DNA of 60,015 nt, the filler included, from Dugesia japonica (lineage: Eukaryota): NCBI GenBank assembly GCA_001938525.1. It is 6 parts of 6 records of this genome, joined end to end, with 100 filler letters (N's around TTAATTAATTAA, not from the genome) between each part and the next. Parts side by side here need not be neighbours in the genome. Positions count along the whole stretch, not along the records: positions 20,939 to 31,794 come from MQRL01501996.1; 5 more parts are not named here. The stretch is one strand, 5' to 3'. The position numbers and the translations under genes were made by a program. How positions within the stretch are numbered: position 1 is the stretch's first letter; each line of letters begins with the position of its first letter. This document shows positions 7,803-52,450 of the stretch, piece after piece. The notes beneath the pieces are model-generated. The model saw only the letters and a list, made by a program, of their open reading frames with translations. It ran no database searches and was not told the DNA's origin.

Positions 7803-9110
7803 ATTATTGTATTATTGTAAGGTCATTCTTTCAACATGTATTATTGTAAGGTTATTCTTTTAACATATGATATTACACTGTTCGTCTTTTAACATGCATT
7901 ATTGTAGAGTAATTATTTTAACATGTATAACTGTAGGGTTATTATTTTAACATGTATAATTGTAGGGTTATTGTTTTAACATGTATAATTGTAGGGTTAT
8001 TGTTTTAACATGTATNNNNNNNNNNNNNNNNNNNNNNNNNNNNNNATTGTAGGGTTATTGTTTTAACATGTATAATTGTAGGGTTATTGTTTTAACATGT
8101 ATAATTGTAGGGTTATTGTTTTAACATGCATTATTGTAGGGTTATTCTTTTAACATGTATAATTGTAGGGTTATTGTTTTAACATGTATAATTGTAGGGT
8201 TATTGTTTTAACGTGCATTATTGTAGAGTAATTGTTTTAACATGTATTATTGTAGGGTTATTCTTTTAACATGCATTATTGTAGAGTAATTATTTTAACA
8301 TGTATAATTGTAGGGTTATTGTTTTAACATGTANNNNNNNNNNNNNNNNNNNNNNNNNNNNNNNNNNNNNNNNNNNNNNNNNNGTTATAATTTTAACATG
8401 TATAATTGTAGGGTTATAATTTTAACATGTATTATTGTAGAGTTATTCTTTTAACATTTATTATTGTAGGGTTATTGTTTTAACATGTATTATTGTAGGG
8501 TTATTCTTTTAACATGCATTATTGTAGGGTTATTAGTTTAACATGTATTATTGTAGAGTAATTGTTTTAACATGTATAATTGTAGGGTTATTGTTTTAAC
8601 ATGTACAATTGTAGGGTTATTGTTTTAACATGTATAATTGTAGGGTTATTGTTTTAACATGTATAATTGTAGGGTTATTGTTTTAACATGTATAATTGTA
8701 GGGTTATNNNNNNNNNNNNNNNNNNNNNNNNNNNNNNNNNNNNNNNNNNNNNNNNNNNNNNNNNNNNNNNNNNNNNNNNNNNNNNNNNNNNNNNNNGTTA
8801 TAATTTTAACATGTATAATTGTAGGGTTATAATTTTAACATGTATTATTGTAGAGTTATTCTTTTAACATGTATTATTGTAGGGTTATTGTTTTAACATG
8901 TATTATTGTAGGGTTATTCTTTTAACATGTATAATTGTAGGGTTATAATTTTAACATGTATTATTGTAGAGTAATTATTTTAACATGTATTATTGTAGGG
9001 TTATTATTTTAACATGTATTATTGTAAGGTCATTCTTTAATCATGTGAGTTTACAGTGTCAGTCTTTTAACATGTATTATTGTAGGGTCATTCTTTGAAC
9101 TTGTATTATT
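7803..9110. repeat. 29-bp tandem minisatellite (AACATGTATAATTGTAGGGTTATTGTTTT)n, gapped
   Basis: Period of 29 read directly (e.g. CATG at 7951 and 7980); degenerate edges; three N gaps. Confidence 0.95.
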
Positions 9111-16430: not shown

Positions 16431-19400
16431 CTAAAATTAAGATAATAAAATTATCTTAATAAAATTGTTATTTATCTTAATAAAATTAAGATAAATAAAA
16501 GAATTAAGATAAAAAAGAATTAATATAAAAAGCGGTCTATAACAAAGAAAATAAACTGCAGCTGTTAAGAATGAAGTATAAAGATGTGATATCCCATAGT
16601 CCCAAATGGACTTATAATAGATATCACAATGCACGAGGCGTTGTCAAATTTGTGCCGACTTCGGGGTATCTACCCCTAGAAGATATTAACACAAAGAAGA
16701 ACGATATAAAGAAGAATATCAATCAAAACAATCAATAGAAAGTGTCCACGAAGAAATAATAACATCAAAAATTTCGAAACCGAACACATCTATTCGATAG
16801 AGAATTTTATGTTGAGTAAGAATAACACGGTGAAAAATCGCCAAAACGTATACCCAAGGAAATAAATAGAAATAGCAACAAAAAGCAAACAAGTACAATT
16901 TTTATTTAAGTTTAATTTTATGATAAAATTTATTTAATATTTTTACACTAGTTAGATATATCCTAAATTACTAAACTAAATTACTAAACCACTTTGTCGG
17001 GGCTGCGGTTTAGTATTTTTAGTAATTACTTTTACAATTATTTTTATATTCAATTGGAATTTTAGATACATCGTTTTTATTAATTTTTTTTTACTTTCTC
17101 GTACTACGATTGTATTATTAGTTTGGGTTTGTCGTTCGTTATCGTTATATAGCTTTTTCTATATTCGGTTATGGATCACCCACTGCGGATCTGTTCTTGG
17201 TTCTACTATAGTGTACCATAATTTATGTGTTCTAGAATTAGAATATTATAGTTTGGAACATTTTTTCCAGAAATACGTAAAAACATTGATGTTTTCTGGA
17301 TTTATGCCATTTCAGCCGCAACTTTACTGATTTATCTCTAGGCCTCGTTAGTACTTATAAAGTGAGGAGTGTTCACTGAGCCTGGCTGGTGTTTGGTTAG
17401 AATGNGTTAATGTTTAAATTTTTGGTTTGCATTTTTAGTGCGAAAAAGTAAAATAAATAAAAAAAAGTTGATTTCAAGAGAAAAGCAACCTTTTCATTCT
17501 GTATTTAAGTTACTTGATTTTATAAATAGGTTTTGGGGCCCGGGCGATTGATCCCCTTTGATTTGATACTGGCCGAGATTATGCAAATGTCTTTTGTTGA
17601 AAAGCCAGATGTAGTTATTTCAGTTGTTCACAATTTGTTTGAATGCTTTAAACGACATTGGAGACCGACTGATTCAAGGCTAGTGTTCAATAATTGGTTT
17701 TAAATGTAAACGATATTCTAAATGTTTAATTTAATTAAATATTGAAAATTTCGTTTTGATTTAAATTTATTGAATGTATTATATTTTGATGCAGACGTTA
17801 ACACAAAATTTGAGTGTTATTCTGTATTCTAATAAATTTCAAAGTCTACAAGCACGATATTAAAATATTAAAAATAGTAAAATTATTGCTTTGACATCGT
17901 CTAAATATTCATTTCTCCAACATAGTTTTGCGTACGTACGCAAAGGGTGTTTCTGAACATGTACGGAATGCAACAGGGGAGCATACGTTATATATGGATG
18001 AATCCTCGCTGAAAAATTCCTGTTTACATTTATACTTCTTTAAACATTCGTGAGATTAACCTTTCTTTACTCCTGTCATTATAAATTTGATTTATTTTAA
18101 ATGCTTTTATCAATAATTTTTTTTGTATAATTTATTTTTTTTATTTAGTTTCTTATTTGATTTTCTAGTTATTTTTCTATATTTGATTGTTATAATGATT
18201 CCTGTTTTAACATTATCATTATTCATATTATAAATATATAATTTTATCACATTTTGTGTTTTAGATTGCTTAAATTTCAAATGGAAATTTCTGATAAAAT
18301 TGTAACAAACAAAGAAAAAATCCATAAAAATATATATTGATGTAATAAACTTGTAATTTTTTATATTATCAGAACCTAAAATTTGGAAATCTTTATTTTG
18401 CACATTTAATATTTTTGAAGATATTAGAAAAGGCTTTGAAATTTAGTTGCTATTTTGTACTGGTATTTATTAAAATTTCAAATTGTCTCAGCTGTAAAGC
18501 ATTCGATTATTGTGCTTCTTGGAAATATTAAGAAATATGCTGTATCTTAAACGTAAATGTGTTATAAGTTATGTGAAATTATAATTTCAGTGAAATAATT
18601 TATTTTACGTCCCAAATGGTTTTCATTATTAAAAAACTTATTAAAAAATATTGTTGGTCTTAGAGGTTATGATGTTTTCTTATTTCTCTCTTATCTTGGT
18701 CTTATACATTTGTATTGATGATTACTTTCTTTTAGAAGTAGGTATCCCGAAGCTGGCAAAAATTTGTCGACACTTCGCTAGTCCATGTGGGACTATGTGG
18801 TATTCCTTCTTTGAGAAAGTCCATTGATGTTATATTTCTCTCAATTTTAATTTATTTTCTTCGTATATTTCCTTTTTTACATCATCTTGAATTGACAATA
18901 TGACAGATTTATTTACATACAGCCAACTAAGGAGATTCGAGGATCGTCTCTTCTGTAATTACACAATCTGGACCCACGTTCTTGTTTCCGTCGTAGTCTC
19001 GCAACGTCTTAATATTAACCAGGATAGTAGCCTCACGATTCGCTTTGCTTTTCACTATTTAGGCAAGCATACTGTTATTTAAAATCAGCGAAAGTTTGCG
19101 CCGGTGGACCTCGCCCAATCTTTAGGGTCAACAATTACTTTATTGTGATGCTGTCCGAGTCTTTAAATTCTTTGACTTCCTTCCGTAAGCGTTTTATCTC
19201 GACCCCGTTTCTTAGTTGCTTGGCCAATAACTCATTTCGGGTTGGTTTCCTGATCGTGAATGCATTTTTATTTCTTCAAGTTGCTAACATTTAATGATAT
19301 TAATATAGACTTAATTTCGACTCGCTTAATATCAGCTATCATTCGCTTGCCCGCTTGATTGTGAGTAAGTAACCATACGGTTCCACGCTCCGTGATAATT

Positions 19401-20838
19401 GGTGGCTTAGATACTCGATTTACCAGATTCGCGAGAACTAAAGTTTGTTACTTTATCTGTCCTCGCAATGGCTCTATGTGCAATTGCTCAAATTTCTTTT
19501 TGCTCTCCGATCTCGATAACCCTGTTTGGCTGAAACAGCTCAGTTAGAAAATAATTTTGAGTAAACTGAAGAAATTAGAGATAACGAACTCTGAGTGGGT
19601 TAGAAAATGATTAAAATTAAAAGAAATAAATACTATTAAATCATCAATAAATTAACTGATAATAAAATAAATGAAGGTATTAAATAAATCAACCAATCAG
19701 AAATAAAATTAGAAAATAAAGAAGTGAGTAAGATTAAAAGTATCAAAATGAAAAGGGATAATAAAGCATAGGAATAATTAAATCGTTAATAAGAAATAAA
19801 AGAAAACAACGATTTCTATAAATCGATAAAATAAGGATCATGAGAATTTACATATTATGATTTGAATAGAAAATCATAATTAGATTAAAAGAAACAGATA
19901 AATTAAAAGATCGGAAAATGCTACGAAAAGTTAAGATTTAAATATTGAGAAAAATTAAATAAATTCAGAAACAAGTAACCATTAAAATAAATTATAATTA
20001 AAGAGGAGATTAATAACTGAATGTGCTCAAGAAAATGATGAACCGAAAAAAGAAAGAGAATGAAAAAGTCAGAAATACAAAGAATAATAATAAAAATAAT
20101 AAATGCATATCACGAAATAAAAAGAATAATAATTAAATAATTATTTAATGAATACTTTTTACCAAAATAATAAAGGAAGTAAGTAAATAAATCACAAGAA
20201 ACGATATAATTCTCAAAGAAGATAATAATCAATGAATAAAAAGCACGAAAGCTCAAATGATATAAATGCGGCTCACGAACTAGAAAGAAAGCTCAAATAA
20301 TCCAAAATTAAATGTATAAATTATGTCAGGAAATGGTATTTAAGAAATAATAAATGAAATGAAATCGAAAATAGAATTCGAATATGTTATATATTATTAT
20401 TTATAATTATATGCATGTTATAAAAGTATAAATATAATAAAATAATTAATTTAAGAAAGTAGGATTAAAACAAAAGTATTTTATTAAAAGATTTTAGTAA
20501 AAATTGGTAGGAATTAGTAGAAAAGAGATATGAAATAAATAAGTATTATTTTTACCGTTAAAAACGTTTATAAAATTATTATAATGTGGTTAGAATAAAT
20601 CATAAAGTATTTAAATAAGTAGAATGTAATATTATTATTTCTAGTTAAATTATGAGGAAGGAAACGGAATTAAGAAACCAGAATTATGTAAAAAAAATTA
20701 ATAGATAATTAACAGTTAAATTAAGATTTTGAAAACATTAAATTTCTTACATGTATTCACGTATAAATCCTTATGTATAATATAGAAACAAACTATCTAA
20801 AAATATTATTTTTGTTATAAATATTATTAATTTTATTA

Positions 20839-20938
20839 NNNNNNNNNNNNNNNNNNNNNNNNNNNNNNNNNNNNNNNNNNNNTTAATTAATTAANNNNNN
20901 NNNNNNNNNNNNNNNNNNNNNNNNNNNNNNNNNNNNNN
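20839..20938. other. Artificial scaffold linker
   Basis: N44-TTAATTAATTAA-N44. Confidence 0.97.
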
Positions 20939-21251
20939 GGGGGGGTAGAAAAAGTGGAGGTTCAGTGCGGACATGTCTCACTACTCAGAACCAATGAAGA
21001 ATAACCCAGAGAAACAAAAAAGTGAAGATGAAGAAAAAATTAATTGTTGTAACAATAAATGTCAGTATGAACATGAATGGTAAGTTGACTTGGACATTAA
21101 ACCATGACTACTTTTGGTGTTTCGTTTTTGGTTTCTCTGTAAAATAAATTACCTCACATTTATACTTCATTTCTCTTTTCATTAACTTTTATCACTATAA
21201 TTGCTGTCAAATCAATGATTAACTCATCTCGACTTATTAATTTTCTTTCAG

Positions 21252-23005
21252 ATAAAAAATGGAACGAAAGTGGGAAATGCTATTAGACGGGCGTACCGGT
21301 AGATTAATATTCAAACGATATAAGAACCCCATAACCGAGACGCTGGGGTGTTGGTGGACCGTTCTAATCTGTCTACAGAAGAGGCAGAGGACGAGCGACA
21401 ATGGGACGCCCCTGAACGTCGTGCTTTTTATGAATGGAATGGCACCAATCGAGATCGAGAGTTATATCATTCCACTACGGCTTTTCCTCTGGTTAACAGT
21501 TAAGAGCTTCGTACCACCAGTGAGTAGCGCGAAGGCCCTTTGGTGATTCCAGTTTCAACGGCCCGTTTACCACCTTTCTCCAGATTGACCAAATTCGTAA
21601 ATAATACACTTTGGGAGATCCGAAATAGGGAGAATGGCGGTAGCGCAGAAAATGTAGTTTTAGGTGCTAATGACAAAACTATATAACAATTCGTATCTCT
21701 TGATGACCACTTTTAGTGTTAATAAATTATTTTAGTCTTTATTTAAGCATCTTTTGTTAACTCTTGATCTTAATCACCATAATTTAATGGTTTACCAAGC
21801 ACTAAGTAATTGGTTATGATGAGGTTTCAACTTCAATAAAACCGACTAATTATTTATCTCCTCATTGTTTACATATAATATTTTTAATACATTTCTATTC
21901 CAGTTTATTCTTCACTAAATCGTTTGTGGCTCCCACTAAAAAGTGCGAGAAACAAATGAGGACAAGAAGGTGACGTGGGACTTATACTGTCTCGCGAAAC
22001 GTCGATGGAAGACCAATACAGCTACCGCCAAATGTAAGGTATAAAAGAAAATGCATAGCGTTTCGCAAAGAAGCAGAGGCCTCCCATACCCAAGAGAGGC
22101 TTTGGAAAACTTAAATTAAATCATTAACTGAAATTATCCGGTCCCTCCATGACCGAGAAAATAAACTGGTCACAGATATTTTGGCTTTAAGGGAGGCCAT
22201 GCCACTAGAGCCACCAATGGTGGATAAATCCACACAGACTTCACGCCCTTAACTTGATGTTAATCCTTTGGATAATGAAAATACATTATTCTACTATAAT
22301 GGGCCATTCGTGTTTTTCACTTAAATGAGTTTCTTAGTTATTTAATTATCTAAATTAAATTTACATGATTTTCTCTCTCTTAATTACTTCTTTTGTAGTG
22401 CCGAGAATCAGACTTTCTACCAGTTTACGTCGCTGCCAAAAATTATTACTTGAGCGCCATATAAAGAGACAAAACGAAGGCGCGCTTCTACAACACCTTG
22501 CCCAGCGCAACCGGTTAATTAAGAAGTTAGACATCATAGTCAAAAAGCAAGGCGACTTAGCCGAACAGACAAAACAAATACTCCTGCACAAAATCGAGTT
22601 CATAAAGCAATGCATTGTTGACCTTGCCAGTCGTCTTTGGCAAGAAACATGAACAGCGAGGATGATAAAGCTATTTTTGGCTTCATCCCTAATGAGCCAA
22701 CCCAGTGGTTAGACACGGTTGCGCTGGATCAATGTAATCAATTATGTAATCAATTGGAAATAAATTTTTAATTGTAGTACAATATTAATTCGTTTTTGTT
22801 AAATTAAATTATAGGGAGAATATGGAACCCGAAACTAAAGGTATATGAGTGTGTACTTCAAATAAATGGTGGAATTCAACCGCTCTATACTGAAAATCTA
22901 ATTAGGGACATTAGATAAATTATTGAAAGGGCTATTTGAAGGGCGGTTTTCCCACGCCCCACTTTTTTACATCTAACTCAGGTGAGACCCTAACAAAGAA
23001 ACCAA
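21252..23005 (+). pseudogene. Cassette of four degenerate coding blocks of unknown function (copy A)
   Basis: Blocks begin at ~21252, 21904, 22399 and 22815, each after a pyrimidine/AT tract and AG. Peptides align with the inverted copy B. Confidence 0.6.
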
Positions 23006-23049
23006 TAAAATATTCTTTTTAAGTAATTATTTTTAATTATTTTATTATT

Positions 23050-24330
23050 TAATATTGTTGGGGTTCCACCTGAGTTGAATGTAGAAAGATTATAACTGGG
23101 GGAAAAGACAGCCTTCCGGGGACCATTTCAAGAATTAAACTAATGTCCCTAATTAAGTTATCGGTATAGAGCGGATGACTTCCATCTCTAACTTGAAGTG
23201 CACACTCGTATACCTTTATTTTGGGTTCATTATTTTCCTATTATTTTAATTTATCAATCAAATTAACAATAAATTCGAACTAAGATTTATTTTTTGTTAA
23301 TTACATATAATTTAGAGCACCAGAGTCTAACCACTGTGTGGGCTCACCATTCGTAAAATCGAAGGTGATCTCATCGTCGTCACTATTCCAGTGGACCCAT
23401 GTTTCCTGTTTGAGGCGGTTTGATAGGTCGGCGATGTATTGTTGTAAAAATTCAATTTTTTGAGTGAGAATTTGTTTAGTATGTTCAACCACTTCGCCCT
23501 GTGCAAAGGATTCTACCTTTTGTTTCCAAGCACGTTCCTTAGTGTGGGAGGCTTCTACTTCTATTTGGTAACTGCGGCATTTATTTTGATACCGCCTTAT
23601 CTTGGCGTTTGCTGCTGCTACTTCGGCCTCCCATTTTCGTTTCGCTAATTTATAAAGATCCCAAGACATATCTATGTCCTCACTGCGCTCTCGGATTTTT
23701 TTGGAAGGTCCAAATGAACGGTTGCGGAATGAATGTACTAAATAGAATCAGATTTAATTAGATTACTCAATATGGTGATAGTAGACGAAATATCTCCTTG
23801 ATCATAAGTTATAGTTGGACCAGGTCTCTAAGCTAATCGGAAAAAAGTTTTTTAACAATTATAAATAGTTTGCATGAATAAGACTGACAGACAAGGATAA
23901 ATACTCAAAGAAGGAGACACATCTTAACAATTTTCCAGTCAACATTTATTAAAATTAACACTACAAAAAATGGGATATAATAACACAGTTTCAGTTTTCA
24001 GAATTTACTACCGGTTCAGTATTCTCGACATTTGCGAGGTTGGTTGGCTCCCTAATGCCCCAAAGCAAGTTGGTGATAAATGCCTGTACTGCAGGGCGTG
24101 GAGCAGTTGCCCTGTAGGTAAACTAAGTAGCCAAGTTCTGCGTGGGTCAAACCCAATTTAGATGATTCTGGCGTTCACCAAAATTTTGAATGCGTTCCAC
24201 TAATGCTTCTACCGGTGGTAACTTGGTGTGGTCAACTAATATTCCCGCATTTCTATTATATGGGTTGAGGTGACGCCGAAAATTATTCGCCGCGTCCGTC
24301 GTGTATAAATCCTCTCCCGGTTACTTAGTA
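23050..24330 (-). pseudogene. Inverted diverged copy B of the same cassette (includes ORF 23301-23669)
   Basis: WDLYKLAKRKW vs WDLYCLAKRRW; TKQILTQKIEF vs TKQILLHKIEF; KVYECALQ...PLYTDNLIRDI vs KVYECVLQ...PLYTENLIRDI; NPYNRNAGILVD vs NP-HNRDAGVLVD. Confidence 0.7.
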
Positions 24331-24402
24331 AGGTTCCATAGTAATATGGTCTATGATATTTAAAGGTTCCATAGTAATATGGTCTATGATATTTAAAGGT
24401 TC
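24330..24402. repeat. 32-bp tandem repeat (AAGGTTCCATAGTAATATGGTCTATGATATTT)n running into a gap
   Basis: More than two copies visible before the N run. Confidence 0.85.
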
Positions 24403-24924
24403 NNNNNNNNNNNNNNNNNNNNNNNNNNNNNNNNNNNNNNNNNNNNNNNNNNTATGGTCAAAAATGTGTCAAAGATGTCTAATATGTGCTAAATAATATA
24501 AAAAATGTCATGTATTGAATAAGTAAGTAAGTTTAATTGGAATTCCTGACCATTTTGCGAATCTGAGTCTAGTCAACTATTGACGATGATGACTGATTGT
24601 TTTTAAAACAATTGTAGTGGTGTTCAATTATGTCCGAATGTGAACGGATAGAAACACTCCTACTGGAGATGCACATACTGTAATCGAGCTTAGCCTAGTT
24701 AAAACTACGCAAGCTAATCGATAAGCTCAATTATGAACGGACTCGTGTTGGATGCTAAAGACCTTGATGGATTCATTCCGTCGAACTGTACATGTTAGAG
24801 GAGGTAATGCATTGGTATGGAAGGAAAAGAAGACTGAAACAAAGCATGAAAATAATTAATAATTTAAACTAATGTACTTATTAAAAAAAATTAATGTCTT
24901 ATTCTTTAAATACCTTTGAGCATA

Positions 24925-25415
24925 TATATTTAGACTGCCCATACCATGCATAAATATCTTGTAATAATATCTTATAAAATATCAAGACTGAACCATACAT
25001 TGCATAAATATCTTGTAATAATATCTTACAAAATATCAAGACTGCCGATATCATGTAAAATATAGAGACTCCTCCCATCTCATGCAAAATATCAAGACTG
25101 TCCTATCTCTTACATAAATAAATTAATTTAATTAAATTTTTTTAAATTTAATTATATTAAAAAGATTTACCCCCACGTTGAAATTTTAAATTCCTCCCCG
25201 CCCCAACCGCCAAAAGAAATATTAAAATTTTAATTACTCACAAAATTCCACTAATATTAAAACAAAAAATATTTTCATTAATTAAAACAAAAAGTTCCAA
25301 TAATTAAAAAAAATTCCATGAATTCAAACAAAAATACAACTCGATAACTCATACTGTGGCAATGCGCCCCTCTCCACTTCATTAAAAAAAATTCAATTTT
25401 TATTTCTTATACTAT
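24925..25415 (-). mobile_element. Polinton-like terminal/subterminal region, inverted homologue of 51927-52330
   Basis: The reverse complement shares the subrepeats (g)cagtcttgatatttt(g)catg and the segment aattttgtg.g.aatt.aaattt.aa...tttggcgg. Confidence 0.65.
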
Positions 25416-25559
25416 AGAAAAACCGCGATAACCCATAGCAAATCTGTTACTAGTGAATCAGTTGCAATTCTAATAATTCAAAAAAAATTTTGTCATTGAT
25501 ATCGATCGCTTTTGCAACTTAATAGTTAAAATAAGAAAAAATTTCTCTATTGGTCGTGG

Positions 25560-28500
25560 ACATTTAGTGGCACTAATTTGACCAAGATTTTAAATTAAAT
25601 CGGGGAATAGTTTGTTGTTCCGGGTTAATAATGGAGTTATTGAGAATGAATTTTAGCATGATTTAAAACTTTATTTATAAAAATTGTCACAATAAATATT
25701 GTTATAAAGAAGTCCAACTAGAGTTTCTAAAATATATTTTAAGATAATATGACATCATCGGCTTCTATATATATTGTTTTAGAAGCCAGCAGTCTTGGCG
25801 AAATCTATGAAATAATAATACGGGACTAAAACAATTAAATCAACATACCTGACATGCACACATACAATCAAACATAATTAATTTATACGAGCACTGAGAT
25901 GATTTTGTAATCATCTCACATCCCCCTCGTTTTAAATGGCTTTAGCCATACTATATTTCGAACTATCTCTTTACCTTCAAAATTTCTCAATTTAAAGCTA
26001 TTATTGTGTATTTCATTTATAATTTTATAAGGTCCTCCATATCTATTATCCTGTTTATCTCTTATGTCTATTTTTGCCAGTACATTATCACCAATTTTGA
26101 AATGTCTCTGAATTCTTTTATCTTTATTTTAATCATTAATCCTATTAGCACCAATAATAACTTCCTTTCTTTCGCATTGAACATTATTCAATCATTTAAT
26201 ATATTTTAATGAATCTTCGCAAGATGGGATTTCATGCATAAACATTTCTTTGTTTATCTTTTTGCCAAAAACAATTTCTGCTGGGCTACATTTTAAACTT
26301 TTTTGGGTTGTCACATTCAAAGCAAATTCTATATGTTGTAGTGTATCTTCTTAATTTTTATGTAATTGGTCCTTTAAACTAAAAGATAGTCAATCTCTTA
26401 TTGTACGAAATTGTCTCTCTATTTGTCAATTGGCTTGGTGATGAAAGGGACTTGAATAAATAATATCAAAATTAAATTTTTCTGACAAATTTCGTATTAA
26501 ATTTGATTCGAAACCTTTGTCTCTATCTACATGAATTGTTTTACGGGTCCCAAATTTTAAAATCAATTCATTTAAAAGTAATTTGGTGATGGTTTTTGCA
26601 TCTTGTCATGTAACAGCCTTTAAAATCGTATTTTTACTAAATTGATCAATTATAGTAAAAATGTATTTCTTTCAAGTTAATGTGACCTGAAATGGTCCGC
26701 AAAAATCAATAAAAATGCTTTGAAATATTTCATATACATTACTTTTAACCATAATTTCTTTAGTTTTGTGTTGGGTATTTCAACTCAACAAAAGATTTTA
26801 TGGTTCGTATTTGAAATTAATGGATAAATATTTGGTTCGTGATTTTATGGGTGTTGATTTTAACCCTGTGTATATTTAGATACAATACTATATAATCAAT
26901 ATTTTAATCAAAGATATAAATAGGGTTATATCGTGTATGTTGCCATATATAAATAAATAAATAAACACTTTTAAAATGCCCTTTATTTTTTATGTATAAC
27001 AAAATATTTTTCTAACAATAAACCCTTATCAGCTAATTTTAATAAACCAGAATACAGTTTCCCTGAGAGGTCAGTGTCTCTGTAAATAAAACGACAGATT
27101 CAACTAAAAATGTAGCCTGTTTATATAATAATTTTTCTCAACAGCTGCTACCTACTTAAAATACCAATTACAAAAATAAACAATTATTTTTACAGAAATG
27201 AAATACTAGTCACCTTTTTTTCTTTCAATAAAAAATCAATCAAGATTATATTTTCAGTCAATTGTTTTTAGAAAATATTGTCAATTCAAAAAAAATCAAT
27301 AATGTTGAGAAAGTTTTTTTGGTTTTTTTGCACTCAACATAAAAGTGATTGCCTTATGGTCTGTCCTTAAAATGAATTTCTTTCCATATAAGTATTGTTT
27401 AAAATATTGTACAAAGTGAAAAATTGATAACAATTCCTTCCTAGTTATGCAGTATCCAATTTCATGTTTATTCATGCTTTTCGATCCATATGCAATGATG
27501 ACTTCTTTTCCATATTCATCATGTTGTGATAAAACTGCGTCCATTGAATCAAAACTTGCATTTATATCTAAAATAAAAGTTTTCTGAAAATTTGTATGTC
27601 TTAATATTGGTGTTTTTGTGAGACTTTCTGTTAGACTTTTAAATGCTTCTTCACATTTTTCAGTCCAAACTAATTTTACCTCTTTATTCCCAATTGATTC
27701 TTCCAATGGTCTGCCAATTTTCGAATAATCTTTTATGAATTTGCTATAATAATTTGTTAGACCTAAAAAGCTACAAAGATGTTTAATGCATCGAGGTTTT
27801 CCAAAATTGTTTATTGCTTCTATCTTTGAATTATCAGTTTTAATCCCTTCCTTATTTATAATATGACCTAAGAACTTTAATTCTGATACTAAAAAACGGC
27901 ATTTATCTGGATTTATTTTAAGCCCCCATTTCTTAATTCGTAAAAATATTTTTTCAATCCTTTCTTTATGTTCATTTAAATTTTTTGAAAATACTAATAT
28001 ATCAAACCAGAGCTTCTTTCCACATCATGTCTCTAATAATAATTGACATCAATTTTTGGAATGTCGATGGAGCAGCAGCAATACCAAATGGCATTCGGTT
28101 AAAACAATATTGTCCCATTTTAGTCGAAAATGCCATCTTGAGCTAAATATTTTCTTCCAACTACAACTGATAGTATGCATTTCCAAAGTCTATGAATTAA
28201 AAATATTTTGCCCTATATAACGAATCAAGCATCTCTTCAATATTTGGAATTGGAAAAGCAGGTTTTTTATTTATTTAATAATCTGAAATCTAAGCACATT
28301 CTTATTTCATTTGATTCTTTTTTTAACGCATACAATCCGAGAGGTCCATGGGTATTCACACTTTTTTATAATACCATTTTCTTCGAAATTATTTATAATT
28401 TCTACTATTGTTTTTCATAGTGCATCGGCTGCCTTCTAGCTTTCATTAATATCGGTTTGCAATCGGTTTCGATTTTATGTTTTAAAATATCTGTTTTACC

Positions 28501-30060
28501 AATATTTCATTTATTGCTCATAAAATTTCAATATATCTCAGAATGATATCATGAATACTATTATCATCATTTAATTTTAATTTTTAATAATAATATTTAG
28601 GGCACTTCCATTAGCGCATAATACTTGCTTGTTATTAACATTTTTGTTATTAAATTTAATATTTTTAATTTCCTTAGCTATAGTTTTACTCATTACGCTT
28701 ATTTTCGCCCCAGTATCAAATAAAGCATTAAAATAACTTCCATTTAGTTTAAAATTATTAAAAGGTCTACCATCAATGTTACAATAATTAACAACATTCA
28801 AAAATTCAAGCATACAGATATCAGTCAATCTATTTTCATCATTCATATTTTTAAATATAGATTCAATCATTGAATCATTTTCAATCACACCAATACTATT
28901 ATTAAAATTATTCAAACAATCATCATCATACTCAAAAAAACTAGTCCTCATATCATTAATATCATATCTTACACATAATTTATGACTCCTATCCTTTCCC
29001 CGTTGACTGGAGCCTTGGCATTTCCCTAATCATCATTGTTAGCATCTATCTCGTTTGTCTCGTCATCATATAGAGCAGCAACTTGATTTCTTATATTGGT
29101 AAGATAGTATCTGTCATCTCCATGGTATTTGTCATTGCTGTAATCTTTGACTTGGTTTCTAATATTCTTTCTTTTTTTGGTGTCTCCTTGATGGTAACAT
29201 TTATAACTCAGATGTTTTCTTCGATTACAGACAGAACATCGTATATGTGGACAATCACGGCGTAAGTATCCAAATTCATGGTATCCATAACATTGACTGG
29301 ATTCTTCATTTTTATTAAATTGAAAATATTTTCTTTCTTCTCTACTTTCTGGATACATTTGTGTTGTTTGTTGACGCATTGGATGTTGAATTGAATTCAT
29401 TGGTTTCTTTAATGAATATTTCCTTGATTGTTGGATTTCTGGAATTTGTCTTTGATTATTGCTATTTCCAGAGTTGGTTACAATTTGCATTTTGTTGACA
29501 TTTTTAAACTCCAGCATATGATTGTTTATCTATCACATTGATTTGTGCCACTGGTTTATTTTTATCGATACGATGCAAAATATTTTATATATTTGCATGG
29601 AGTTGGACCTTTCTGTACGTTTTTAGTTACAATCTGTTCATCTTCTTTAAATATTTTCCCTCTTAATAAATCTTCAGTCATCTTTGAATTTCATCCTTCT
29701 GTGTTTCATTGTCAAGACAATGCTTCAGGAAAAATGCGATCAATTTAGTACTGGTTAATTTATGTCGCATAACATTTTCAATGTATTTTTCAATTTTTGA
29801 AATGTATACATCCACCGAATCGTTTCTTCTTTTGTAATTTAGGAATTTGATTAGATCGTCAGCTAAATCTAGGCTTTTTAAAAATGCATTTTGCATTCTT
29901 TTTTCATAATCTTCTTCTGTAGTTTCATCAAATTTTATTCTTGACTCTTCGTCTAAATATGCTCTGTTAACAATATTTCGTTGGTTGTTGTCGAGCTGGA
30001 TCATTGAAAAATATTACTCCATGTTCTTCAAATATTCTTCAACATCATATTCTTTGCTGA
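25560..30060 (-). mobile_element. Degenerate Ty3/Gypsy LTR retrotransposon (gag-PR-RT-RH-IN, PPT and 3' LTR)
   Basis: gag with knuckles (29026-30004); protease ALFDTGAKISV; RT RMPFGIAAAPSTFQ with the YxDD partly deleted; RNase H (27296-27706); integrase FIDFCGPF/IIDQFSK/SSPFHHQAN. PPT AAAACGAGGGGGA is followed by TG at 25920. The distal LTR end is uncertain, and there is an unrelated insertion at ~26780-27295. Confidence 0.92.
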
Positions 30061-30134
30061 GGAAGAATTAATTGATTTATTTAAACCAATATAAATAGTA
30101 TTATAAAAAATGCAATAAATTATATATTTATAAA

Positions 30135-30196
30135 ATGCAGTTGATCAATGATGCCGTTTATCAAATTGTTGGTTCAAGCGGAAGCGGTCAACATTA
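30135..30196 (+). pseudogene. 5' stub of a Polinton packaging ATPase
   Basis: MQLINDAVYQIVGSSGSGQ matches MERLRNDAIYQIVGPSGSGK at 52523. Confidence 0.75.
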
Positions 30197-30998
30197 TCTA
30201 TTGTGGCTTAAAAATCAACATTCTAGATGAAAATCGATATTTTATGTGAAAAATAATCACAATGTAGTTGAAAATGTATATGTTGTATGTAAAAAAATGT
30301 ATTATATGAAAATATTTATTTGATTGAATTTAAATTGAAAAATAATTTATTAATCTTTGTTAAATCATAAAAATATAAAGCAGTTAATTGACCTTTGTTA
30401 TAATCAAAAACATGCCTTTGTTATTTTCATGACTAATATTTTTGTAAATGCAACAATATACTACATTGCAGTACTTTAAAATTATTTTATTAACAAATTT
30501 TTTTCATACCACAACTAAATATAATACGTTGTGATATTTTAAGATTTCATCTAAATCTTATTGGTTTGCGACTAAAATTTTGCAATGTGTTTTACTGCAT
30601 TAATTTTGCCACAATTTTCAAAACTAATTTTCAAATCAAGGTAAAATTACTGCCAAATTTTTTGTGTTTCATTTATTTTGATTCATTTTTTATTATTATT
30701 TTAATTTTAGATAAAATGAATAGTGAAAATAAAAGAATTTAACTATGCGAAAAAGATTACATGAAGAAGTAAATTTATTTATAATTTAAAAATTTATTAA
30801 TTTAAAATTATATATATTTAGGTTTTAAACATCGCAGAGGAAAAATATGGAGCAGCTGCTACAGAAAGTATTTGAAAATTAATGTAATAATGTGTTAACA
30901 ATAAATGTTTTACTAGATAATTGTTTTGTCTTATTTACTTTTTNNNNNNNNNNNNNNNNNNNNNNNNNNNNNNNNNNNNNNTAGTAAAATAATAAGTG

Positions 30999-31755
30999 TC
31001 TCTTATTATAAATAGTTTTTTAATTATGAATACAATAGGGCTTGCAATATAGATGGATTACAGCAACAAATACTTAATAATTTTGATAAATGCAATAGGG
31101 TTGCAACAGGAGCCTGGAAATTTTATTAAATATAATAGGTATACATTTTGCATGTTTACTGTATAATTAATACAAGTTAACTGTACAAATAAACTTTACA
31201 TTACACAGTAACTATGTAAATTACCCTTATACAGTTATAAAACTATTTACTTATAAGTTTGTATATAAATAATACAAGAAAGAAACAAAATTATTATTCA
31301 ACTGTATTTATTTAACAATGATAAAATTACATTGCATATGTGACTTTTAAATTGATTCATGTTGACAATAATTTTGAATTGTAAAATAAAAATTTTATTT
31401 TACGAAAACTACTGCTTTTATACTCACNNNNNNNNNNNNNNNNNNNNNNNNNNNNNNNNNNNNNNNNNNNNNNNNNNNNNNNNNNNNNNNNNNNNNNNNN
31501 NNNNNNNNNNNNNNNNNNNNNNNNNNNNNNNNNNTTATATAAATAAGACATACTTTTCAAACTAAGATCACTTTTAAAAACTTTAATAATGAATTATTCA
31601 GATATGGATGGCTTTTATTCCAAAACTACAATCATAAAACTTAACCTTTATGGTTGTTATGTAAATAATACAAGGTAACTATGTAAATAATATACTCATA
31701 GACTTATAAAATTGTATATTGTATTCATAATTAAAAAACTATTTATAATAAGAGA
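30999..31755. repeat. Perfect 39-bp inverted repeats (30999-31037 and 31717-31755)
   Basis: TCTCTTATTATAAATAGTTTTTTAATTATGAATACAATA and its exact reverse complement. Confidence 0.85.
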
Positions 31756-31794
31756 TATAGACTTATAAAGTAAATTTGAAAGGCCGAAATGTAT

Positions 31795-32171: not shown

Positions 32172-33538
32172 TCATCCCAATAATTTTACTGTTATCTCTT
32201 TTGTTGCCATAGTATTAACTGTGTTCTTTTGGCACGCTTCACACTGTCTTATCCCTTCTGTGATTGTCTTCTTCAGTTCTTCCATGTTGTAGTTGCTAAT
32301 TATATAGCTGGTCATTTTCTCTGTCCCTGCATGTATTACAATGTATGTATCTCTTTGATCATTGATATTCTTTTCTCTTTTGGAATCCAAATTTTCTCAT
32401 CATTTGTTTTCACTATATTTATCTGTCTTGTTTTCATCTTCCTCCATCTTTGGATCTTCATGTTGCATTTGACATTGAGTGCACGTTCCGCATTTCATTC
32501 TTGAGAGCATATCTACGTTTGTGTGTTTTTCGCTTTGTCTTTATATTATTTCCTTGTCTTAGCTGCTAAGGTAATTCATCCATATCTGGAACTGAGTTGT
32601 TGTCGGTTTGTTCGACTTTTTCATGAATACGATGGTTTTGTGACCTGCCCTTGTTATGAATTTTTTCCATATAAATAATGTTTAGAGTGGTTGCAGAATT
32701 AGTAGATTGCTAGTAATTCCTACCGTGTGATACAGTAACCCTTCTCATGTGATGTCATTGCATGTGAATCGTAAGCAATAACTCTTTCTATTCCATCATC
32801 ATCATTTTGTGATATGACCCTTCCTATCGCGCCGAAACTGACGTCAGTATCTAAAATAAATGTTTTCTTTATATCCGGGAATCTTAGAATGGGTGCTTCT
32901 ATCAGTGCTTGTTTCATTTCTGCGAAAGTTTTCTCACATAGATCTGACCTTATTAGCTTGGCGCTGTTGCTTCCACATAATTCTTCTAGAGCTTTTGATT
33001 TCTTTGAATAACTATTGATAACCCTTCTGTAATATATTGCATATTCCGAGGAAGCTTCTCAGACTCTTTACACATTTGAGTTTCTCAAAATTCTTGATTG
33101 CTTCATTTTCATTCGATCTGTTCGAATTCCTTCTTAAACTATTATGTGACCAAGAAATTTCACTTCTTTGCGTAATAGGTGACATTTTTCTGGATTCACT
33201 CGCAACTCTGCCGTTTGGATCCGCTCTAATACTTGACGCAGAGTATATAATGTTCTTTTAGTCCTTCTGAGAATATCATTATGTCATCCATATACACTAT
33301 CGCTCCATCTAGACCATTCAATTCTTTTCTCATTAGTTCTTGGAATGTTCCTACTATGCCGAAAGGCATTCTGGTGAAGCAATATTGATCATTTTTGGTA
33401 GAAAAGGCTGTTTCCTCTTGTGACTCTTTTTTTTAACGGTATATGGTAATACGCGTTTCACAAGTCTATGGTACTGTCTAACATTTTTTCTACGTTTGTT
33501 TCTCCTCTTTTCCATTACAACAGTTTGAGATAAATTTG
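32172..33538 (-). mobile_element. Ty3/Gypsy pol remnant (RT, RNase H, integrase zinc-binding region)
   Basis: RMPFGI, VYMDDIMIF, LRSFLGICN, FILDTDVSFGAIG, HAG...CEACQKN; frameshifted. Confidence 0.9.
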
Positions 33539-33655: not shown

Positions 33656-34545
33656 ATTTATTCTTAGTATTTATAAGGGAAAGCAACGACTTTTTATGGC
33701 ATTGTAATGTTAACTTTTTCTCTATGCTTATATTACTATGAACAATATTTACACTAATTTCTAATAAATCGTCAATAAAAACCATTAGAAATGCCTGTAA
33801 CATTTTCATTGTGGACTCTTTTGTAACCTTGAGTAATAATTTTAAACAAGGAAGACTTTGTTGAAATGCCACAATTTTTATTTAATTAAACTTACAGATT
33901 GTTTATAATCTGATCTATTTTCCTGTTGATTGAATCCTTTATATTTGGTTGTTTCTTCTTTATCTTTGTTTGCTTCTTATTAGCAATCTTTGATTGTTTC
34001 TTTGATTGCATATTTATTGACTTCTTTATTGTTCTCTTTATCGGCCATTTTATTGCTTTCTTAATTGAATTGATATAATTTGGAATAATATTATTGTCAT
34101 CATTATTAGTTTGATTGTTAGTTTGATTAATTCTTTTAGGATCAACTAAAACTTGAGTATATTTTGACATTTGTAAAATAATAAATTATCTTTATTGTTT
34201 ATATACTACAACACNTTTTAGAATGAAAATATCAGTTCGAACTGTAAGTTCACCTAGACAATTCTGTGAAAAATTTAGAAAAATATATCCATGAGGTTTT
34301 ATCTTTAAAAGCGAACTTTCATCTTCAAATGAATCTAATAAAAATTGGCGATTATTCTGGTACGCTAAAATTAATAAAATATTTAAATCAGCACTGAATT
34401 CCTACATTTGAAAAATATTATTCATTGGATACGAAAGTCTTCTAAAACTATTTTAATGTATTTTTGGTTGTTTCTTTCATCCATCTATTGATTTTTCTTA
34501 CTTTAATTTTAACTTTTTGTCTATATGAAGAATTTATTTTGAATT
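33656..34545 (-). mobile_element. Second Polinton fragment: ATPase remnant, basic protein (33892-34170), PW/pX-like small protein
   Basis: KPHGYIFLNFSQNC...VRTDIF; K-rich 92-aa ORF; DDLLEISVNIVHSNI. Same order as 52523-53825. Confidence 0.8.
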
Positions 34546-34956: not shown

Positions 34957-36507
34957 ATGAGTAAATCAATCATTACATTACAATTAGGAAATTATGCTAA
35001 TTTTATCGGAAGTCATTATTGGAATCTTCATGAATTCTCATTTAAAAATTTGAATACACATATTGATAATGATGTGAATTATTATGAAGGATTAACGTTA
35101 AACAACGAAGTTACATTCACTCCTAAAGTTTTATGTTGGGATTGGAAAGAAAATTTGGGTGCTAGAATTGTAGATGACATTTATGAAGAAATTGAAAGTC
35201 ATGGAGACACTAATTGTCAAACACGAAGAGATATAAACAGTTTAAAGGCTGATTCTTGTAATGGGAAGCTTGAAAAACACACTGGATTTACTGATGAAGA
35301 ATTAAAAGTTAATAAAACCAATAAAATAATTAATAAAGAACATACGGAATGGAATGAATATTTATATGCAAGATATCATCCAAAATCTCTAACTAAACTG
35401 CCAAAATTGTATCAAGAGTTCGACAGTGGTAATTTTCGATACTTTTTACAAGGTCAACAATTGACCGAAAGCAAGGAATATAATGAGTGTATGATTGAAC
35501 AGACGCGATATTTTGTTGAAAAATGCGATATGCTGCAAGGATTTCAGGTAATGTGTGATTCAAATGACGGTTTTAGTGGAGTTGGTATGAACTTTTTAAC
35601 TCATTTATCAGAAGAATATAGGAAGAACATTTTGTCCTTTCCAACAAGCTCTTCGACAGATGGTAACGATGACGATAATCTTTTCAATAAAATATTTTTA
35701 TATAATGAAATGAATTCTAAATCAGTATTTTGGTCACCAATTAGCTGTTTTAATGACAAAAATAAGCCCGTAGAAATTGCTAATGTCAATTATAATCAAT
35801 CTAAATACCACACTAGTGCAATTCTAGCTGTTGCACTTAAATCTTTATTATTACCTTGTTCTTTTAATAACTCGAATTATTCTTTATCAGATTACAGTGA
35901 TGTTATAGATAGGCAAAACAACAAAATGGCTTCATTAGCTTTATCTTTACCATTTCCTATTAAGCATAATGAAACCCTAGAAAAATCATTGTTAAATCTT
36001 TTACCGGAAAATTGTTATTCTGTGTTGAATCCTTATTCTGAAGAAATCGGAAAGTTTAATTCAGTTATTGGAAGCATTTTCGGTATCGATGAAACTCGTC
36101 AGAAATATGTGAATCGAACATCTAACGGTATTTACGATCATTGTTCAAATGTATGTGAAATGATGGAACAATATGTCAGTAATACTTGTTTGGCTAAAAA
36201 ATCTCGATTTTTCAGTTCAACTGATAAAATTAATTTGCAAAAACCGTTTCCTAATATATTTTCATCGATTATCGATAAATTTGCTGGCGAATTATTACCT
36301 GTTACTAATGAGAAAATATTTTGGCACTGTCCAAAGTCTATTCCTCTTTCGACGATGTTGTATTCCAGTGATAATAATGAGAGCTTGCTGAGAATTTATG
36401 AGTCAGCTAAATCATCGTTCAAAAAAAGAAAGATCTCGACTTGTTTATTACAAATGGAGGCGGATTCAATCACTGAAGCTATCGAAAATTTTCGAGATAT
36501 TATTTAA
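34957..36507 (+). CDS. MSTO1: Protein misato homolog (tubulin/FtsZ-like), single exon
   Basis: IITLQLGNYANFIGSHYWN, FTPKVLCWDWKENLG, RYFVEKCDMLQGFQVMCDSNDGFSG, YHTSAILA; intact 516-aa ORF. Confidence 0.95.
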   Translation: MSKSIITLQLGNYANFIGSHYWNLHEFSFKNLNTHIDNDVNYYEGLTLNNEVTFTPKVLCWDWKENLGARIVDDIYEEIESHGDTNCQTRRDINSLKADSCNGKLEKHTGFTDEELKVNKTNKIINKEHTEWNEYLYARYHPKSLTKLPKLYQEFDSGNFRYFLQGQQLTESKEYNECMIEQTRYFVEKCDMLQGFQVMCDSNDGFSGVGMNFLTHLSEEYRKNILSFPTSSSTDGNDDDNLFNKIFLYNEMNSKSVFWSPISCFNDKNKPVEIANVNYNQSKYHTSAILAVALKSLLLPCSFNNSNYSLSDYSDVIDRQNNKMASLALSLPFPIKHNETLEKSLLNLLPENCYSVLNPYSEEIGKFNSVIGSIFGIDETRQKYVNRTSNGIYDHCSNVCEMMEQYVSNTCLAKKSRFFSSTDKINLQKPFPNIFSSIIDKFAGELLPVTNEKIFWHCPKSIPLSTMLYSSDNNESLLRIYESAKSSFKKRKISTCLLQMEADSITEAIENFRDII

Positions 36508-37129
36508 TTTTAAAACAATTTAATATTTGTTCATGAAATTTTTTGATTTTGTTATACTTTTAAATGTAAATATTTTTGTTTTGTCTGTATTTTTCGTGTT
36601 ATANNNNNNNNNNNNNNNNNNNNNNNNNNNNNNNNNNNNNNNNNNNNNNNNNNNNNNNNNNNNNNNNNNNNNNNNNNNNNNNNNNNNNNNNNNNNNNNNN
36701 NNNNNNNNNNNNNNNNNNNNNNNNNNNNNNNNAAAGTTTAATAAGTAAAAAATTGCATTAAAATACAAATCTTAATTTATTAATACTATCTTTTTCCGAA
36801 AATAAGACACTGTCTTACTTTCCTTTTTTAGTTCAAAATACGTGCTAGGGCTTATTATTGGGGTTGTCTTATTTTTCAAGATATATTCGTGTAATATTTT
36901 TTAAAATTTATTCGAATTCAGTCATTTTGAAGATGGTCATAACTTATAAGAAAAAGGAATCTGTATACCAATTGCTTATTTAAATTAAGCAGAAATAAAA
37001 TTTTTATTAAAGTGATAATAGGGCTATAGCCCCATGGCACAAGCCTTTTGGGCGGCAATTTTTATTTGTGATATATATTTTTTTGTTATTATTAGTTTTA
37101 TAAAAATTCATTCTTCATTTAATTAGTTT

Positions 37130-37528
37130 TTACGTATTTTAAAAAAAATATAAATGAAGACATAATTAGAAAGCATGCTGCAAAGTTGTGCGAAATGTAT
37201 CAGAAAGATTTAGGAAATAACTTTATCGAAGAATGTCTACATTTTAAATATGTGAATTTATTGGAAAATATATCTACTGCAGAACTTAGTTTAAAGATAG
37301 AAATCGAGCAGAAAATTGAATCTTCATTTCCAAACGTGGTCACAGCACTGCGCATCTTTTTAACTATCGCCACTACAAACTGCAATGGTGAAAGATCATT
37401 TTCAGCAATAAAAAGAATAAAAAATTATTTACGATCTTCTTTGGGACAGAGCAGATTCAATGATTTAAGTATTTTATCCATTGAGAGAAATTTATTTGAT
37501 AACTTAAATACGAGTGATATTATTGATC
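37130..37528 (+). pseudogene. hAT transposase C-terminal dimerisation domain, copy 1
   Basis: FPNVVTALRIFLTIATTNCNGERSFSAIKRIKNYLRSSLGQSRFNDLSILSIE. Confidence 0.9.
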
Positions 37529-38059
37529 NNNNNNNNNNNNNNNNNNNNNNNNNNNNNNNNNNNNNNNNNNNNNNNNNNGAATTCTATAAAACGATCAATG
37601 GTTAAGTCCAACAATTATTCTCGTAATAATTGCAATTGTAAAAAAATATATTTATACTGTTAAAAGTTTAATAAGTAAAAAATTGCATTAAAATACAAAT
37701 CTTAATTTACTAATACTATCTTTTTCCGAAAATAAGACACTGTCTTACTTTCATTTTTTAGTCCAAAATACTTGCTAGGGCTTATTATCGGAGTTGTCTT
37801 ATTTTTCAAGATATATTCGTGTAATATTTTTTAAAATTTATTCGAATTCAGTCATTTTGAAGATCGTCATAACTTATAATACATAAGAAAAAGTATACCA
37901 ATTGCTTATTTAAATTAAGCAGAAATAGAATTTTTATTAAAGTAATAATAGGGCTATAGCCCCATGGCACAAGCCTTTTGGGCGGCAATTTTTATTTGTG
38001 ATATATATTTTTTTGTTATTATTAGTTTTATAAAAATTCATTCTTCATTTAATTAGTTT

Positions 38060-38484
38060 TTACGTATTTTNAAAAAAATATAAATGAAGACATAATTAGA
38101 AAGCATGCTGCTAAGTTGTGCGAAATGTATCAGAAAGATTTAGGAAATAACTTTATTGAAGAATGCCTACATTTTAAATATGTGAATTTATTTGAAAATA
38201 CTGAAAATATATCTACTGCAGAACTTAGTTTAAAGATAGAAATCGAGCAGAAAATTGAATCTACATTTCCAAACGTGGTCACATCACTGCGCATCTTTTT
38301 AACTATCGCCACTACAAACTGCAATGGTGAAAGATCATTTTCATCAATAAAAAGAATAAAAAATTATTTACGATCTTCTTTGGGACAGAGCAAATTCAAT
38401 GATTTAAGTATTTTATCCATTGAGAGAAATTTATTTGATAACTTAAATACGAGTGATATTATTGATCAGTTTGCCAAAGAATAA
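38060..38484 (+). pseudogene. hAT transposase C-terminal domain, copy 2 (part of a ~0.93-kb tandem duplication, 36733-37528 and 37661-38468)
   Basis: Same motifs as copy 1; differs by SNPs and a 9-bp indel. Confidence 0.9.
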
Positions 38485-42470: not shown

Positions 42471-43407
42471 TCTTTATAAATCACTTGATAATGTTTTTAA
42501 GCGTTTTAACAGTTTCCTGTTTCATTTGTACTTTCGATAATAACAATAACAATAGTATTAAGACTTGTGAACACTCTCTGAACATTCTAGAATTTCCAGA
42601 TTGATGGATGGTTAGTAGAAATGATTCCTTGAATATTATCACCCCACCATATTATTATTCGTTTTTTTCCATTTTCCGAATTTTCCATTGGTTGGTGCAC
42701 CATTCGAAACACAAATAAATTTACGAATTTCTTTATTATAATTAAACTTCCTGGAGAATTACGATTTTTTATTATTTTTTAATAATCTTTACAACATATC
42801 AAAAATATCAAATTATTAGACCGGAACCCAGCGCACCAATGTAGCGAATTTTCCAAATTTCTTTTTTTTGCGAGGTAGGGCCTTAACAATTTATTTATCA
42901 AACAGGTTAGAAACCATTAAATTAGATTTTTTAAAATTATATTAAAAGCATGGATATTTGAGGAAATTTTCTCCAAATACTTTATACTTTTTGTCTGGGT
43001 ACCGTTTAGACAATTAACTCTTTTATCACCTATTTTACCTGTTTTAAAAAATTGTGGTGTTCTAACCTATTACTACTACTAACCTACTCATAATTTCTAG
43101 TTTAAATCATAATAAATCGATATTTCAACTCTGGAGACTTTTTATCTTAATTTTACACTCGGAGACTTTTTGTCCTGTAAACGTATTTAAATATAGAGTT
43201 CATGGAAATTTTTGATGTTTTAATATTTTTTACAACGAAAAAACACTAAATTATTAGACCGGAGACCAGCGCACCAATGTAGCGAATTTTTCAATTGTTA
43301 GAGCACCGTTCGAAACAAGAATAATATACACGAGTAAATTTATGAATTTAAAATGGAAAAAAGTCGGTGAAATAAATATAAAAATATCCGAATTCAATCA
43401 ATCTTAC

Positions 43408-51494: not shown

Positions 51495-51926
51495 GTGCGC
51501 TACTATCTATCTACTTATATAATTGAAAATTATTACCCAATAAAATAATTATAACAATTTTATTTTATTCGTCGAAATCTAAAGATATTAAACAAAAAAA
51601 GTATTAGAAAAGTAAGTTATCATAATAATAATTATGAATTTTTATGTCGAATGTGCTTTGATTTTTTATTTTAACGGCTTTTATTCGATTGGTTGATATT
51701 AGTATTTAGTATAAGTGTTAAAAAAACTTTTCGGGCGGGCGAGAGTGGTATGGATGGAAAGAGAATTAATTATCAGATTTTTAAAGATATATTTGAAATT
51801 TTTCGGTTGGGAGTGTGTGACGTTATAATGTTTTCAAATCTTTATTTTTGTTTAAAATGCTGTATTTTGCAAATAAAGAAAACAACGCATAATTAGTTAT
51901 CGAAGTGCAGGTTTTATTAATAGCTG

Positions 51927-52450
51927 AGTAGTGAGTAAGAAAAAAAACGCAGCTCATATATAATCAAAAACGTGGTAGTGCGGTAATATGTACTACTTAA
52001 TCATGTAAAATATTAAAAAATAATTAAATAAGGGATAAAATAACAAAAATGTTTGTTTTAATTAACATATAAATTTTGTGGGAAATTCAAATTTCAAAAA
52101 ACCTTTGGCGGGAAATTCAAAGATTTATTTTTTGAATGTGAAATTTAAATTTATTTTAGAGCAGTCTTAATATTTATGCATGCTATGTGCAGACTTTATA
52201 TTTTGCATGGTATGGGGAGTTTCTATATTTTACATGGGAAAACTCTATATTTAGCATCGGGAGTCTCTTTAAATTGCAAGAGATGGGGCAGACTTGATAT
52301 TTTGCAAGGGATGGGGCAGTCAAAATTCCTAGGCATTTGATTTTCAGTGTATGTGTGTTGCATCTGTGTTGCATCCTAGTTGTATTTATATAAAAAATCA
52401 ATAAAAATTCCCAGGCACGTGATTTTCAGTGTATGTTTGTTACTATCTAT
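51927..52450 (+). promoter_or_regulatory. Putative Polinton left terminus and subterminal repeats
   Basis: Starts AGTAGT (typical Polinton end); GGGAAATTCAAA twice; ~23-30-bp subrepeats at 52160-52325; immediately upstream of the ATPase. Confidence 0.6.

Follow-up and report, generated by a model that had tools for sequence, protein, structure and literature searches.

The TIRs of Polintons (Mavericks) are long and contain tandem subrepeats. Among vertebrate Mavericks, the commonest end motif is (AGT)2, with (AG)3 also in use, the mean TIR length is 402 ± 276 bp, and accessory regions flank the core; intact elements are described as free of introns, with a TIR at each end and target duplications of 6 bp (PMC8097293). 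Nematode Mavericks are reported to carry a region of 2–5 kb adjoining the TIR that is high in GC, poorly conserved and intron-bearing (10.1101/2022.07.12.499685). A TIR-adjacent cargo architecture is thus already known from both vertebrate and nematode Mavericks. In the account given of butterfly polintons, the core genes hexon and adenain are duplicated inside 2-kb TIRs at both ends of the full element (10.1101/2025.02.07.637071), while the accessory genes described for adintoviruses, namely PLA2X, GasderminX, Cupiennin, Oncoid and Adintoc, are small ORFs, some of unknown function (PMC8502044).

The locus considered here comes from Dugesia japonica (GCA_001938525.1), an AT-rich eukaryote, and lies in a window (the whole stretch of DNA analysed) of 60,015 nt, in which six scaffold pieces are joined by N44-linker-N44 spacers. 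Positions 20939–31794 (MQRL01501996.1) form the scaffold with the gene cassette under study, and positions 51495–60015 the scaffold with a reference Polinton. Transposon debris is abundant in the window. When 56 homologues, out of 120 listed, served as tblastn queries, Polinton-type ATPase remnants came up in three of the six pieces. One of these (33717–34359, minus strand) combines a C-terminal ATPase piece with the small ORF downstream of it; the host gene Misato starts about 600 bp away. Misato (516 aa, 34957–36507) and the N-terminal part of a second host gene, MED14 (426 aa, 43348–44628), both have long, uninterrupted frames. A perfect 39-bp inverted repeat (30999–31037 and 31717–31755, about 700 bp apart) is possibly a MITE.

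With moderate confidence, we interpret positions 20939–25415 as the terminal cargo region and one TIR of a decayed Polinton/Maverick, a different element from the one at 51927 though related to it. The original prediction had offered two readings of the cassette, terminal accessory cargo or a palindromic satellite; cargo fits the data, whereas the satellite is without direct support. The likeness to vertebrate Mavericks consists of the (AGT)2 end of the reference copy, a TIR of about 400 bp and extra ORFs between TIR and core; the tip of the cassette copy is degenerate and its scaffold ends at 20939, unlike the intact elements of that account (PMC8097293). The nematode cargo described by Widen et al. 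(10.1101/2022.07.12.499685) likewise forms a TIR-adjacent block of a few kb, poorly conserved and with GC above that of the core; its genes are of the intron type, as those of the cassette may be. The cassette region, at least 3.9 kb long and high in GC relative to the core, falls within the 2–5 kb range of that cargo. In contrast to that cargo, the cassette has no attached core, its genes are orphans of 60–150 codons arranged as a diverged inverted duplication, and their splicing is inferred. Butterfly polintons also carry Polinton-linked genes twice and inverted (10.1101/2025.02.07.637071). Unlike theirs, the duplicated genes of the cassette do not belong to the core; the copies stand tail to tail and share about 60% protein identity.

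The Polinton-type terminal repeat occupies 24925–25415 on the minus strand. Its reverse complement had been predicted to match the region upstream of the Polinton ATPase on another scaffold, and a match to 51927–52325 was confirmed. Self-blastn of the window aligned 25052–25120 with 52236–52171 (79.7% over 69 nt, E 7.6e-8) and 25074–25114 with 52315–52275 (85% over 41 nt). The local alignment score is 66, and none of 300 dinucleotide shuffles scored above 43. When 282 window tiles were scored on both strands, 66 was reached only by the three that overlap the terminus site, the next best scoring 44. Read outward, the repeat comprises subrepeats at 24925–25105, a middle segment and a degenerate tip at about 25415. 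The CAG[TA]C-type subrepeats said to be common to both termini are indeed present and follow the same order in the two copies; the score of the match was reached in 0/1000 shuffles for the inner subrepeats and likewise in 0/1000 for the outer part. The predicted aattttgtg...tttggcgg segment was also recovered in both (9, 1 and 0 of 1000 shuffles under three scorings).

The proposed correspondence of the degenerate ends (tatagtataagaaa against agtagtgagtaagaaa) is there to be seen, but taken alone it is not significant (193/1000 shuffles). At the collinear position, the cassette copy reads TATAGT/ATAGTA and not AGTAGT: the intact end motif is absent, and this copy of the Polinton end is decayed. 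The position of the tip is supported by its spacing to a shared 14-mer, which is 124 nt in the cassette copy and 125 nt in the reference copy; the AGTAGT/ACTACT hexamer itself occurs 17 times in the window. Homology between the termini was not significant outside the tip (401, 693 and 597 of 1000 shuffles) or inward of the last subrepeat (350/1000), and its inner limit is the innermost subrepeat in both copies. Such a limit is expected if one copy represents the ATPase-side end of an element and the other the opposite end. In a heavily gapped alignment of 386 columns, the two termini agree at 213 of the 266 columns that are aligned; at about 80% identity, they are ends of different though related elements and do not belong to a single one. 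A profile built from both termini found no third copy in the window. An origin of the terminus as a gypsy LTR was rejected, as no direct-repeat partner was found (303 and 300 of 1000 shuffles) and a separate LTR candidate lies beside it. The reference terminus also contains TTTGGCGGGAAA (about 52100–52115), which we take to resemble an E2F site, and TTTGGCGG is kept in the cassette copy (25205–25215).

The reference terminus (51927–52325, plus strand) begins with AGTAGT, the motif given for vertebrate elements in PMC8097293, is about 400 bp long and ends 200 bp ahead of the A32 ATPase. The core that follows (52523–54724, plus strand) comprises the A32 packaging ATPase, two small ORFs and a broken rve integrase. 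The ATPase ORF (52523–53122) is open, scores above the cut-off of Pfam Pox_A32, and has 126 homologues at E ≤ 1e-10 that are up to 74% identical. For the broken integrase gene, the Pfam rve match (E 1.9e-4) is below the curated cut-off, and an IS481-type DDE model matches at E 2.5e-5. Further along, the stretch 58088–59715 is a putative protein-primed PolB, judging by its motifs; it has no match in Pfam, PDB or NCBIfam. A 146-bp inverted repeat (96%; 57946–58091 and 59870–60015) flanks this stretch, and the window ends inside the repeat. Between the integrase and the putative PolB, the reference Polinton is interrupted by a gypsy RNaseH piece (55600–56100) that resembles pieces at 27361–27585 and 32494–32868.

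Inward from the cassette terminus, the order is ORF4, a 33-bp array at a 50-N gap, arm B, an AT-rich centre, and arm A in mirror order. Arms A and B form an inverted duplication of 3.5 kb that involves three small genes. The orphan ORF4 (24630–24872, plus strand, hence directed outward to the terminus) had been predicted as a decayed ORF at about 24630–24860, and it proved to be a single frame of 80 codons with four in-frame stops, at 24681, 24696, 24756 and 24765. The inner boundary of the terminus lies 52 bp past the ORF4 stop, with no recognisable unrelated DNA in between. As predicted, arm B points inward from the terminus, its genes being on the minus strand: ORF1 (23991–24320), with two in-frame stops; ORF2 (23301–23737), the only long open frame in the cassette, with 148 codons stop to stop and 122 aa from the ATG at 23669; and ORF3 (23049–23237), with 62 open codons and no in-frame ATG. 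The AT-rich centre (22997–23048) contains AATAAA on both strands (23004 plus, 23046 minus) and may be a terminator region common to both arms.

Arm A, on the plus strand, carries the orphan ORF1 (21252–21686), with four in-frame stops; two blocks of this ORF are homologous to its arm B counterpart (C-terminal block, 0/2000 shuffles). Two coiled-coil ORFs follow, against one in arm B. The first, ORF 2a (21904–22252), is broken by stops and frame changes; tblastn and alignment pair it with the N-terminal half of the arm B ORF2. In the other, ORF 2b (22399–22771), which has one frame change, it is the second half that matches, and its partner is the C-terminal half of the arm B ORF2. A view of ORFs 2a and 2b as paralogues was rejected (best p 0.05 among nine frame pairs). 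ORF3 of arm A (22808–22996) is broken and without an in-frame ATG, and the ORF3 pair is the block most alike between the arms (82% nt). Every cassette gene except ORF2 of arm B is therefore interrupted or without an in-frame start.

An acceptor-like AG lies at homologous positions upstream of ORF2 in both arms, directly upstream of ORF 2a in arm A; another, at 22398, precedes ORF 2b. Upstream of arm A (20939–21251, plus strand, without a terminus), a motif scan found a strong pair of splice-like signals, GTAAGT as donor (21080) and TTTTCTTTCAG as acceptor (its end at 21251), which could delimit an intron. From these signals, the cassette genes are probably spliced. A second overlapping frame in ORF1 was dismissed: the bias at third positions favours one frame, and the other is taken for a by-product. 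The 33-bp unit (24330–24402, minus strand) has two open frames (11 codons) and contains ATGGAACC; in both arms, the similar ATG(G)AAC[CG] stands close to where ORF1 and ORF3 start (21259, 22822, 23230 and 24339), and it also occurs at eight sites outside 20939–24924. The innermost gene pair (22816–23238) could form an imperfect hairpin, with weak matches to Rfam miRNA models far below the cut-off.

By Pfam, PHROGs and NCBIfam, none of the cassette proteins is similar to an accessory protein known from Polintons, and no Polinton core gene (PolB, integrase, protease, capsids) was found in 20939–24924. The adintovirus accessory genes, too, are small ORFs of animal Polintons (PMC8502044); Pfam gave no match in the cassette to domains of their kind. 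ORF2 of arm B had no match among 19 word-sharing candidates (81–259 aa), none in phage genomes, nothing below E 0.49 among PDB sequences, and 0 of 32 matches in BFVD at E ≤ 0.001. Its sole phmmer match among 1.84 billion representatives, P0001 (E 4.5e-20), was rejected, since it adds up 14 weak matches to a repeat, at 24.6 bits apiece. A model of the protein from a single sequence has two long helices and a low-confidence acidic tail (mean pLDDT 75, pTM 0.33). ORF1, including the pieces in arm A, had no homologue in the profile libraries scanned. The model of ORF3 is poor (pLDDT 52); no phage match was found, and two of its 59 pattern matches in prokaryotic genomes were set aside as coincidences over 11 residues, with a stop after them. 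For ORF4, with X in place of the stops, there was no candidate among proteins of 44–140 aa and none in Pfam, PHROGs or NCBIfam; nor did the window contain a clear second copy, the best scores elsewhere being 48 and 45 against 392 for ORF4 itself. A hammerhead ribozyme, which would have pointed to a Penelope/Terminon-like element, was not found; Rfam gave six weak matches on 20939–26000, all below the gathering score and none of them a ribozyme.

The arms are about 60% identical in protein, and their silent sites are saturated while the protein is conserved. In six ungapped blocks, mismatches at first, second and third codon positions number 59, 46 and 104 (p 1.7e-6), and pS is 0.78 against a pN of 0.26; the blocks were picked by protein similarity, which inflates the result somewhat. 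The low pN relative to pS and the codon-position bias indicate that the cassette genes were functional long after the duplication. The innermost pair departs from this pattern, with a pS of 0.33 against 0.65–1.0 for the outer pairs: 6 of 18 silent sites differ between the ORF3 copies, compared with 82 of 95 in the outer pairs (p 9e-6). This suggests either exchange near the centre or extra constraint.

The interpretation as cargo fits the (AGT)2 end of the reference copy, about 400 bp long and placed ahead of an ATPase and an rve integrase, together with the raised GC and intron-like signals of the cassette. Under it, the terminal repeat would be the end on which the integrase and the protein-primed polymerase of the element acted, the core genes would lie left of 20939, past the scaffold end, and the cassette would be copied and inserted as a passenger. 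From about 24460–24630, ORF4 would be transcribed outward and arm B inward, arms A and B converging on a common AT-rich terminator. By analogy with other Maverick cargo, the products are probably host-acting accessory proteins, ORF2 perhaps a coiled-coil adaptor with an acidic tail. The cassette copy would have died after insertion, and a gypsy element would then have landed beside its end. Among the points that count against this interpretation, the association is known from a single locus, the side with the cassette has no attached core gene, the degenerate tip is not significant by itself, and the cassette proteins are unlike known Polinton accessory proteins.

The alternative that survives best, which we consider unlikely though far from negligible, is that the two parts are neighbours by chance, a solo Polinton end or small non-autonomous piece having inserted beside an unrelated foreign gene cluster that stems from another endogenous virus or a lineage-specific host family. 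Element debris is dense and nested in the window, and because Polinton debris is common there, adjacency of cassette and terminus comes cheaply. On the other side of the terminus, 29 bp beyond its tip, ends a probable gypsy 3′ LTR (25445–25920, minus strand), with a purine tract followed by TGT...ACA; TG...CA ends and a purine tract are the usual signs of an LTR. It adjoins a decayed gypsy retrotransposon (25921–30013, minus strand) with gag, protease, RT-RNaseH and integrase recognised by Pfam. Neither is part of the Polinton-type element. Beyond the gypsy lies a 5′ fragment of another Polinton ATPase gene, together with the region upstream of it but no terminus (30087–30245, plus strand; tblastn E 2.5e-4, matched by 25 of 56 homologues). 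Unlike the cassette terminus, this fragment does match the ATPase promoter region of the reference Polinton (0/1000 shuffles). The order terminus, gypsy, ATPase fragment is weak evidence for two Polintons arranged head to tail and broken up by the gypsy, the cassette lying at the end opposite the ATPase. A chance insertion sits less easily with a terminus that is correctly oriented and whose full inner boundary lies so close to the ORF4 stop.

Base composition bears on the same question. No other 3.4-kb stretch of the window is as rich in GC as the cassette: its value is 0.372, while the best stretch that starts outside 17500–24500 has 0.302. The 0.372 of 20939–24402 compares with 0.275 for the ATPase-integrase region of the reference Polinton. 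GC3 is 0.39–0.46 in ORF1, ORF2 and ORF4 and 0.29–0.34 in ORF3, against 0.21–0.29 in the ATPase and integrase, 0.18–0.24 in the gypsy and 0.23–0.26 in the two host genes; two putative PolB pieces, at 0.34–0.38, are near ORF3. CpG o/e is about 1 for ORF1, ORF2 and ORF4, compared with 0.24–0.63 for the ATPase and integrase genes. The composition of the cassette is foreign both to the two sampled host genes and to the neighbouring core genes. The raised GC matches the nematode type of cargo, but a compositional difference fits an unrelated origin equally well, and the difference from the ATPase and integrase in GC3 and CpG counts for chance neighbours. The difference in GC3 from the two host genes counts against them, as does the breakage of all cassette genes but one, in contrast to the open frames of Misato and MED14.

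Less probable again is a palindromic, non-autonomous satellite or second genome segment, ordered terminus, cassette B, cassette A, terminus, and replicated and integrated in trans by a Polinton. It is doubtful that the cassette is such a quasi-palindromic, gene-bearing entity of about 4.5–5 kb, with a terminus at each end and neither replication nor capsid genes, and that it would hold two long-diverged, selected sets of spliced orphan genes around a central terminator, with exchange near the centre. The two arms do share their end point and run towards a single terminator, both were under selection, no core gene is present, and the far lower silent divergence of the innermost gene pair is suggestive of exchange between arms. 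Set against this, no terminus was detected in 20939–21330 (754 and 717 of 1000 shuffles), a weak test that covers about 320 bp upstream of ORF1 in arm A, and the scaffold start (20939–20960), a G run and a purine-rich stretch, does not match the terminus. No counterpart of ORF4 was detected in the first 320–390 bp of arm A (best of 36 frame pairs p 0.04, uncorrected), and the arms are unequal in gene content and saturated at silent sites. As the scaffold ends at 20939, there is still room for a second terminus. No description of a gene-bearing palindromic Polinton satellite was found in the parts of the literature covered, which is weak evidence of absence.

The cassette and the terminus are separated by a 50-N gap (24403–24452) inside a 33-bp tandem array (24330–24459), and the original prediction had asked for contiguity there. 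To the left of 24403 stand 2.2 identical copies of the 33-bp unit, and the first seven bases to the right carry it on, as well as is seen at 323 of 57,928 window positions (0.56%); ORF4, to the right of the gap, has the GC3 and CpG content of the cassette. Contiguity is favoured on these two counts and not by the whole-flank alignment to the 33-bp repeat (169/1000 shuffles) or the comparison of arms A and B across the gap (95 to 672 of 1000), neither of which is significant, and a collapsed array appears more likely than a misjoin. That the join links unrelated contigs, leaving only ORF4 inside the terminus, is most improbable given the continued unit and the matching composition of ORF4, even with the non-significant flank alignment and with fixed 50-N gaps also found in a 29-bp tandem array (7808–9110, three gaps) and between the copies of an 800-bp near-duplicate. 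The latter (36733–37528 and 37663–38467, 95.8%) is probably an assembly overlap or two haplotypes.

Mavericks are reported to carry cargo genes between animal species, and a nematode cargo gave rise to a selfish toxin (10.1101/2022.07.12.499685). If the cassette is cargo, it adds an orphan, compositionally foreign family to that repertoire, and its unusual part is the old mirror-image duplication. It also gives a probe for intact copies, a result useful to specialists and expected in kind. Were the cassette a satellite, it would represent a hyperparasite of a polintovirus, or a segmented form of one, in the germline of an animal. The locus would become important if a second terminus, and not core genes, lay to the left of 20939, which would indicate such a Polinton satellite or segment.
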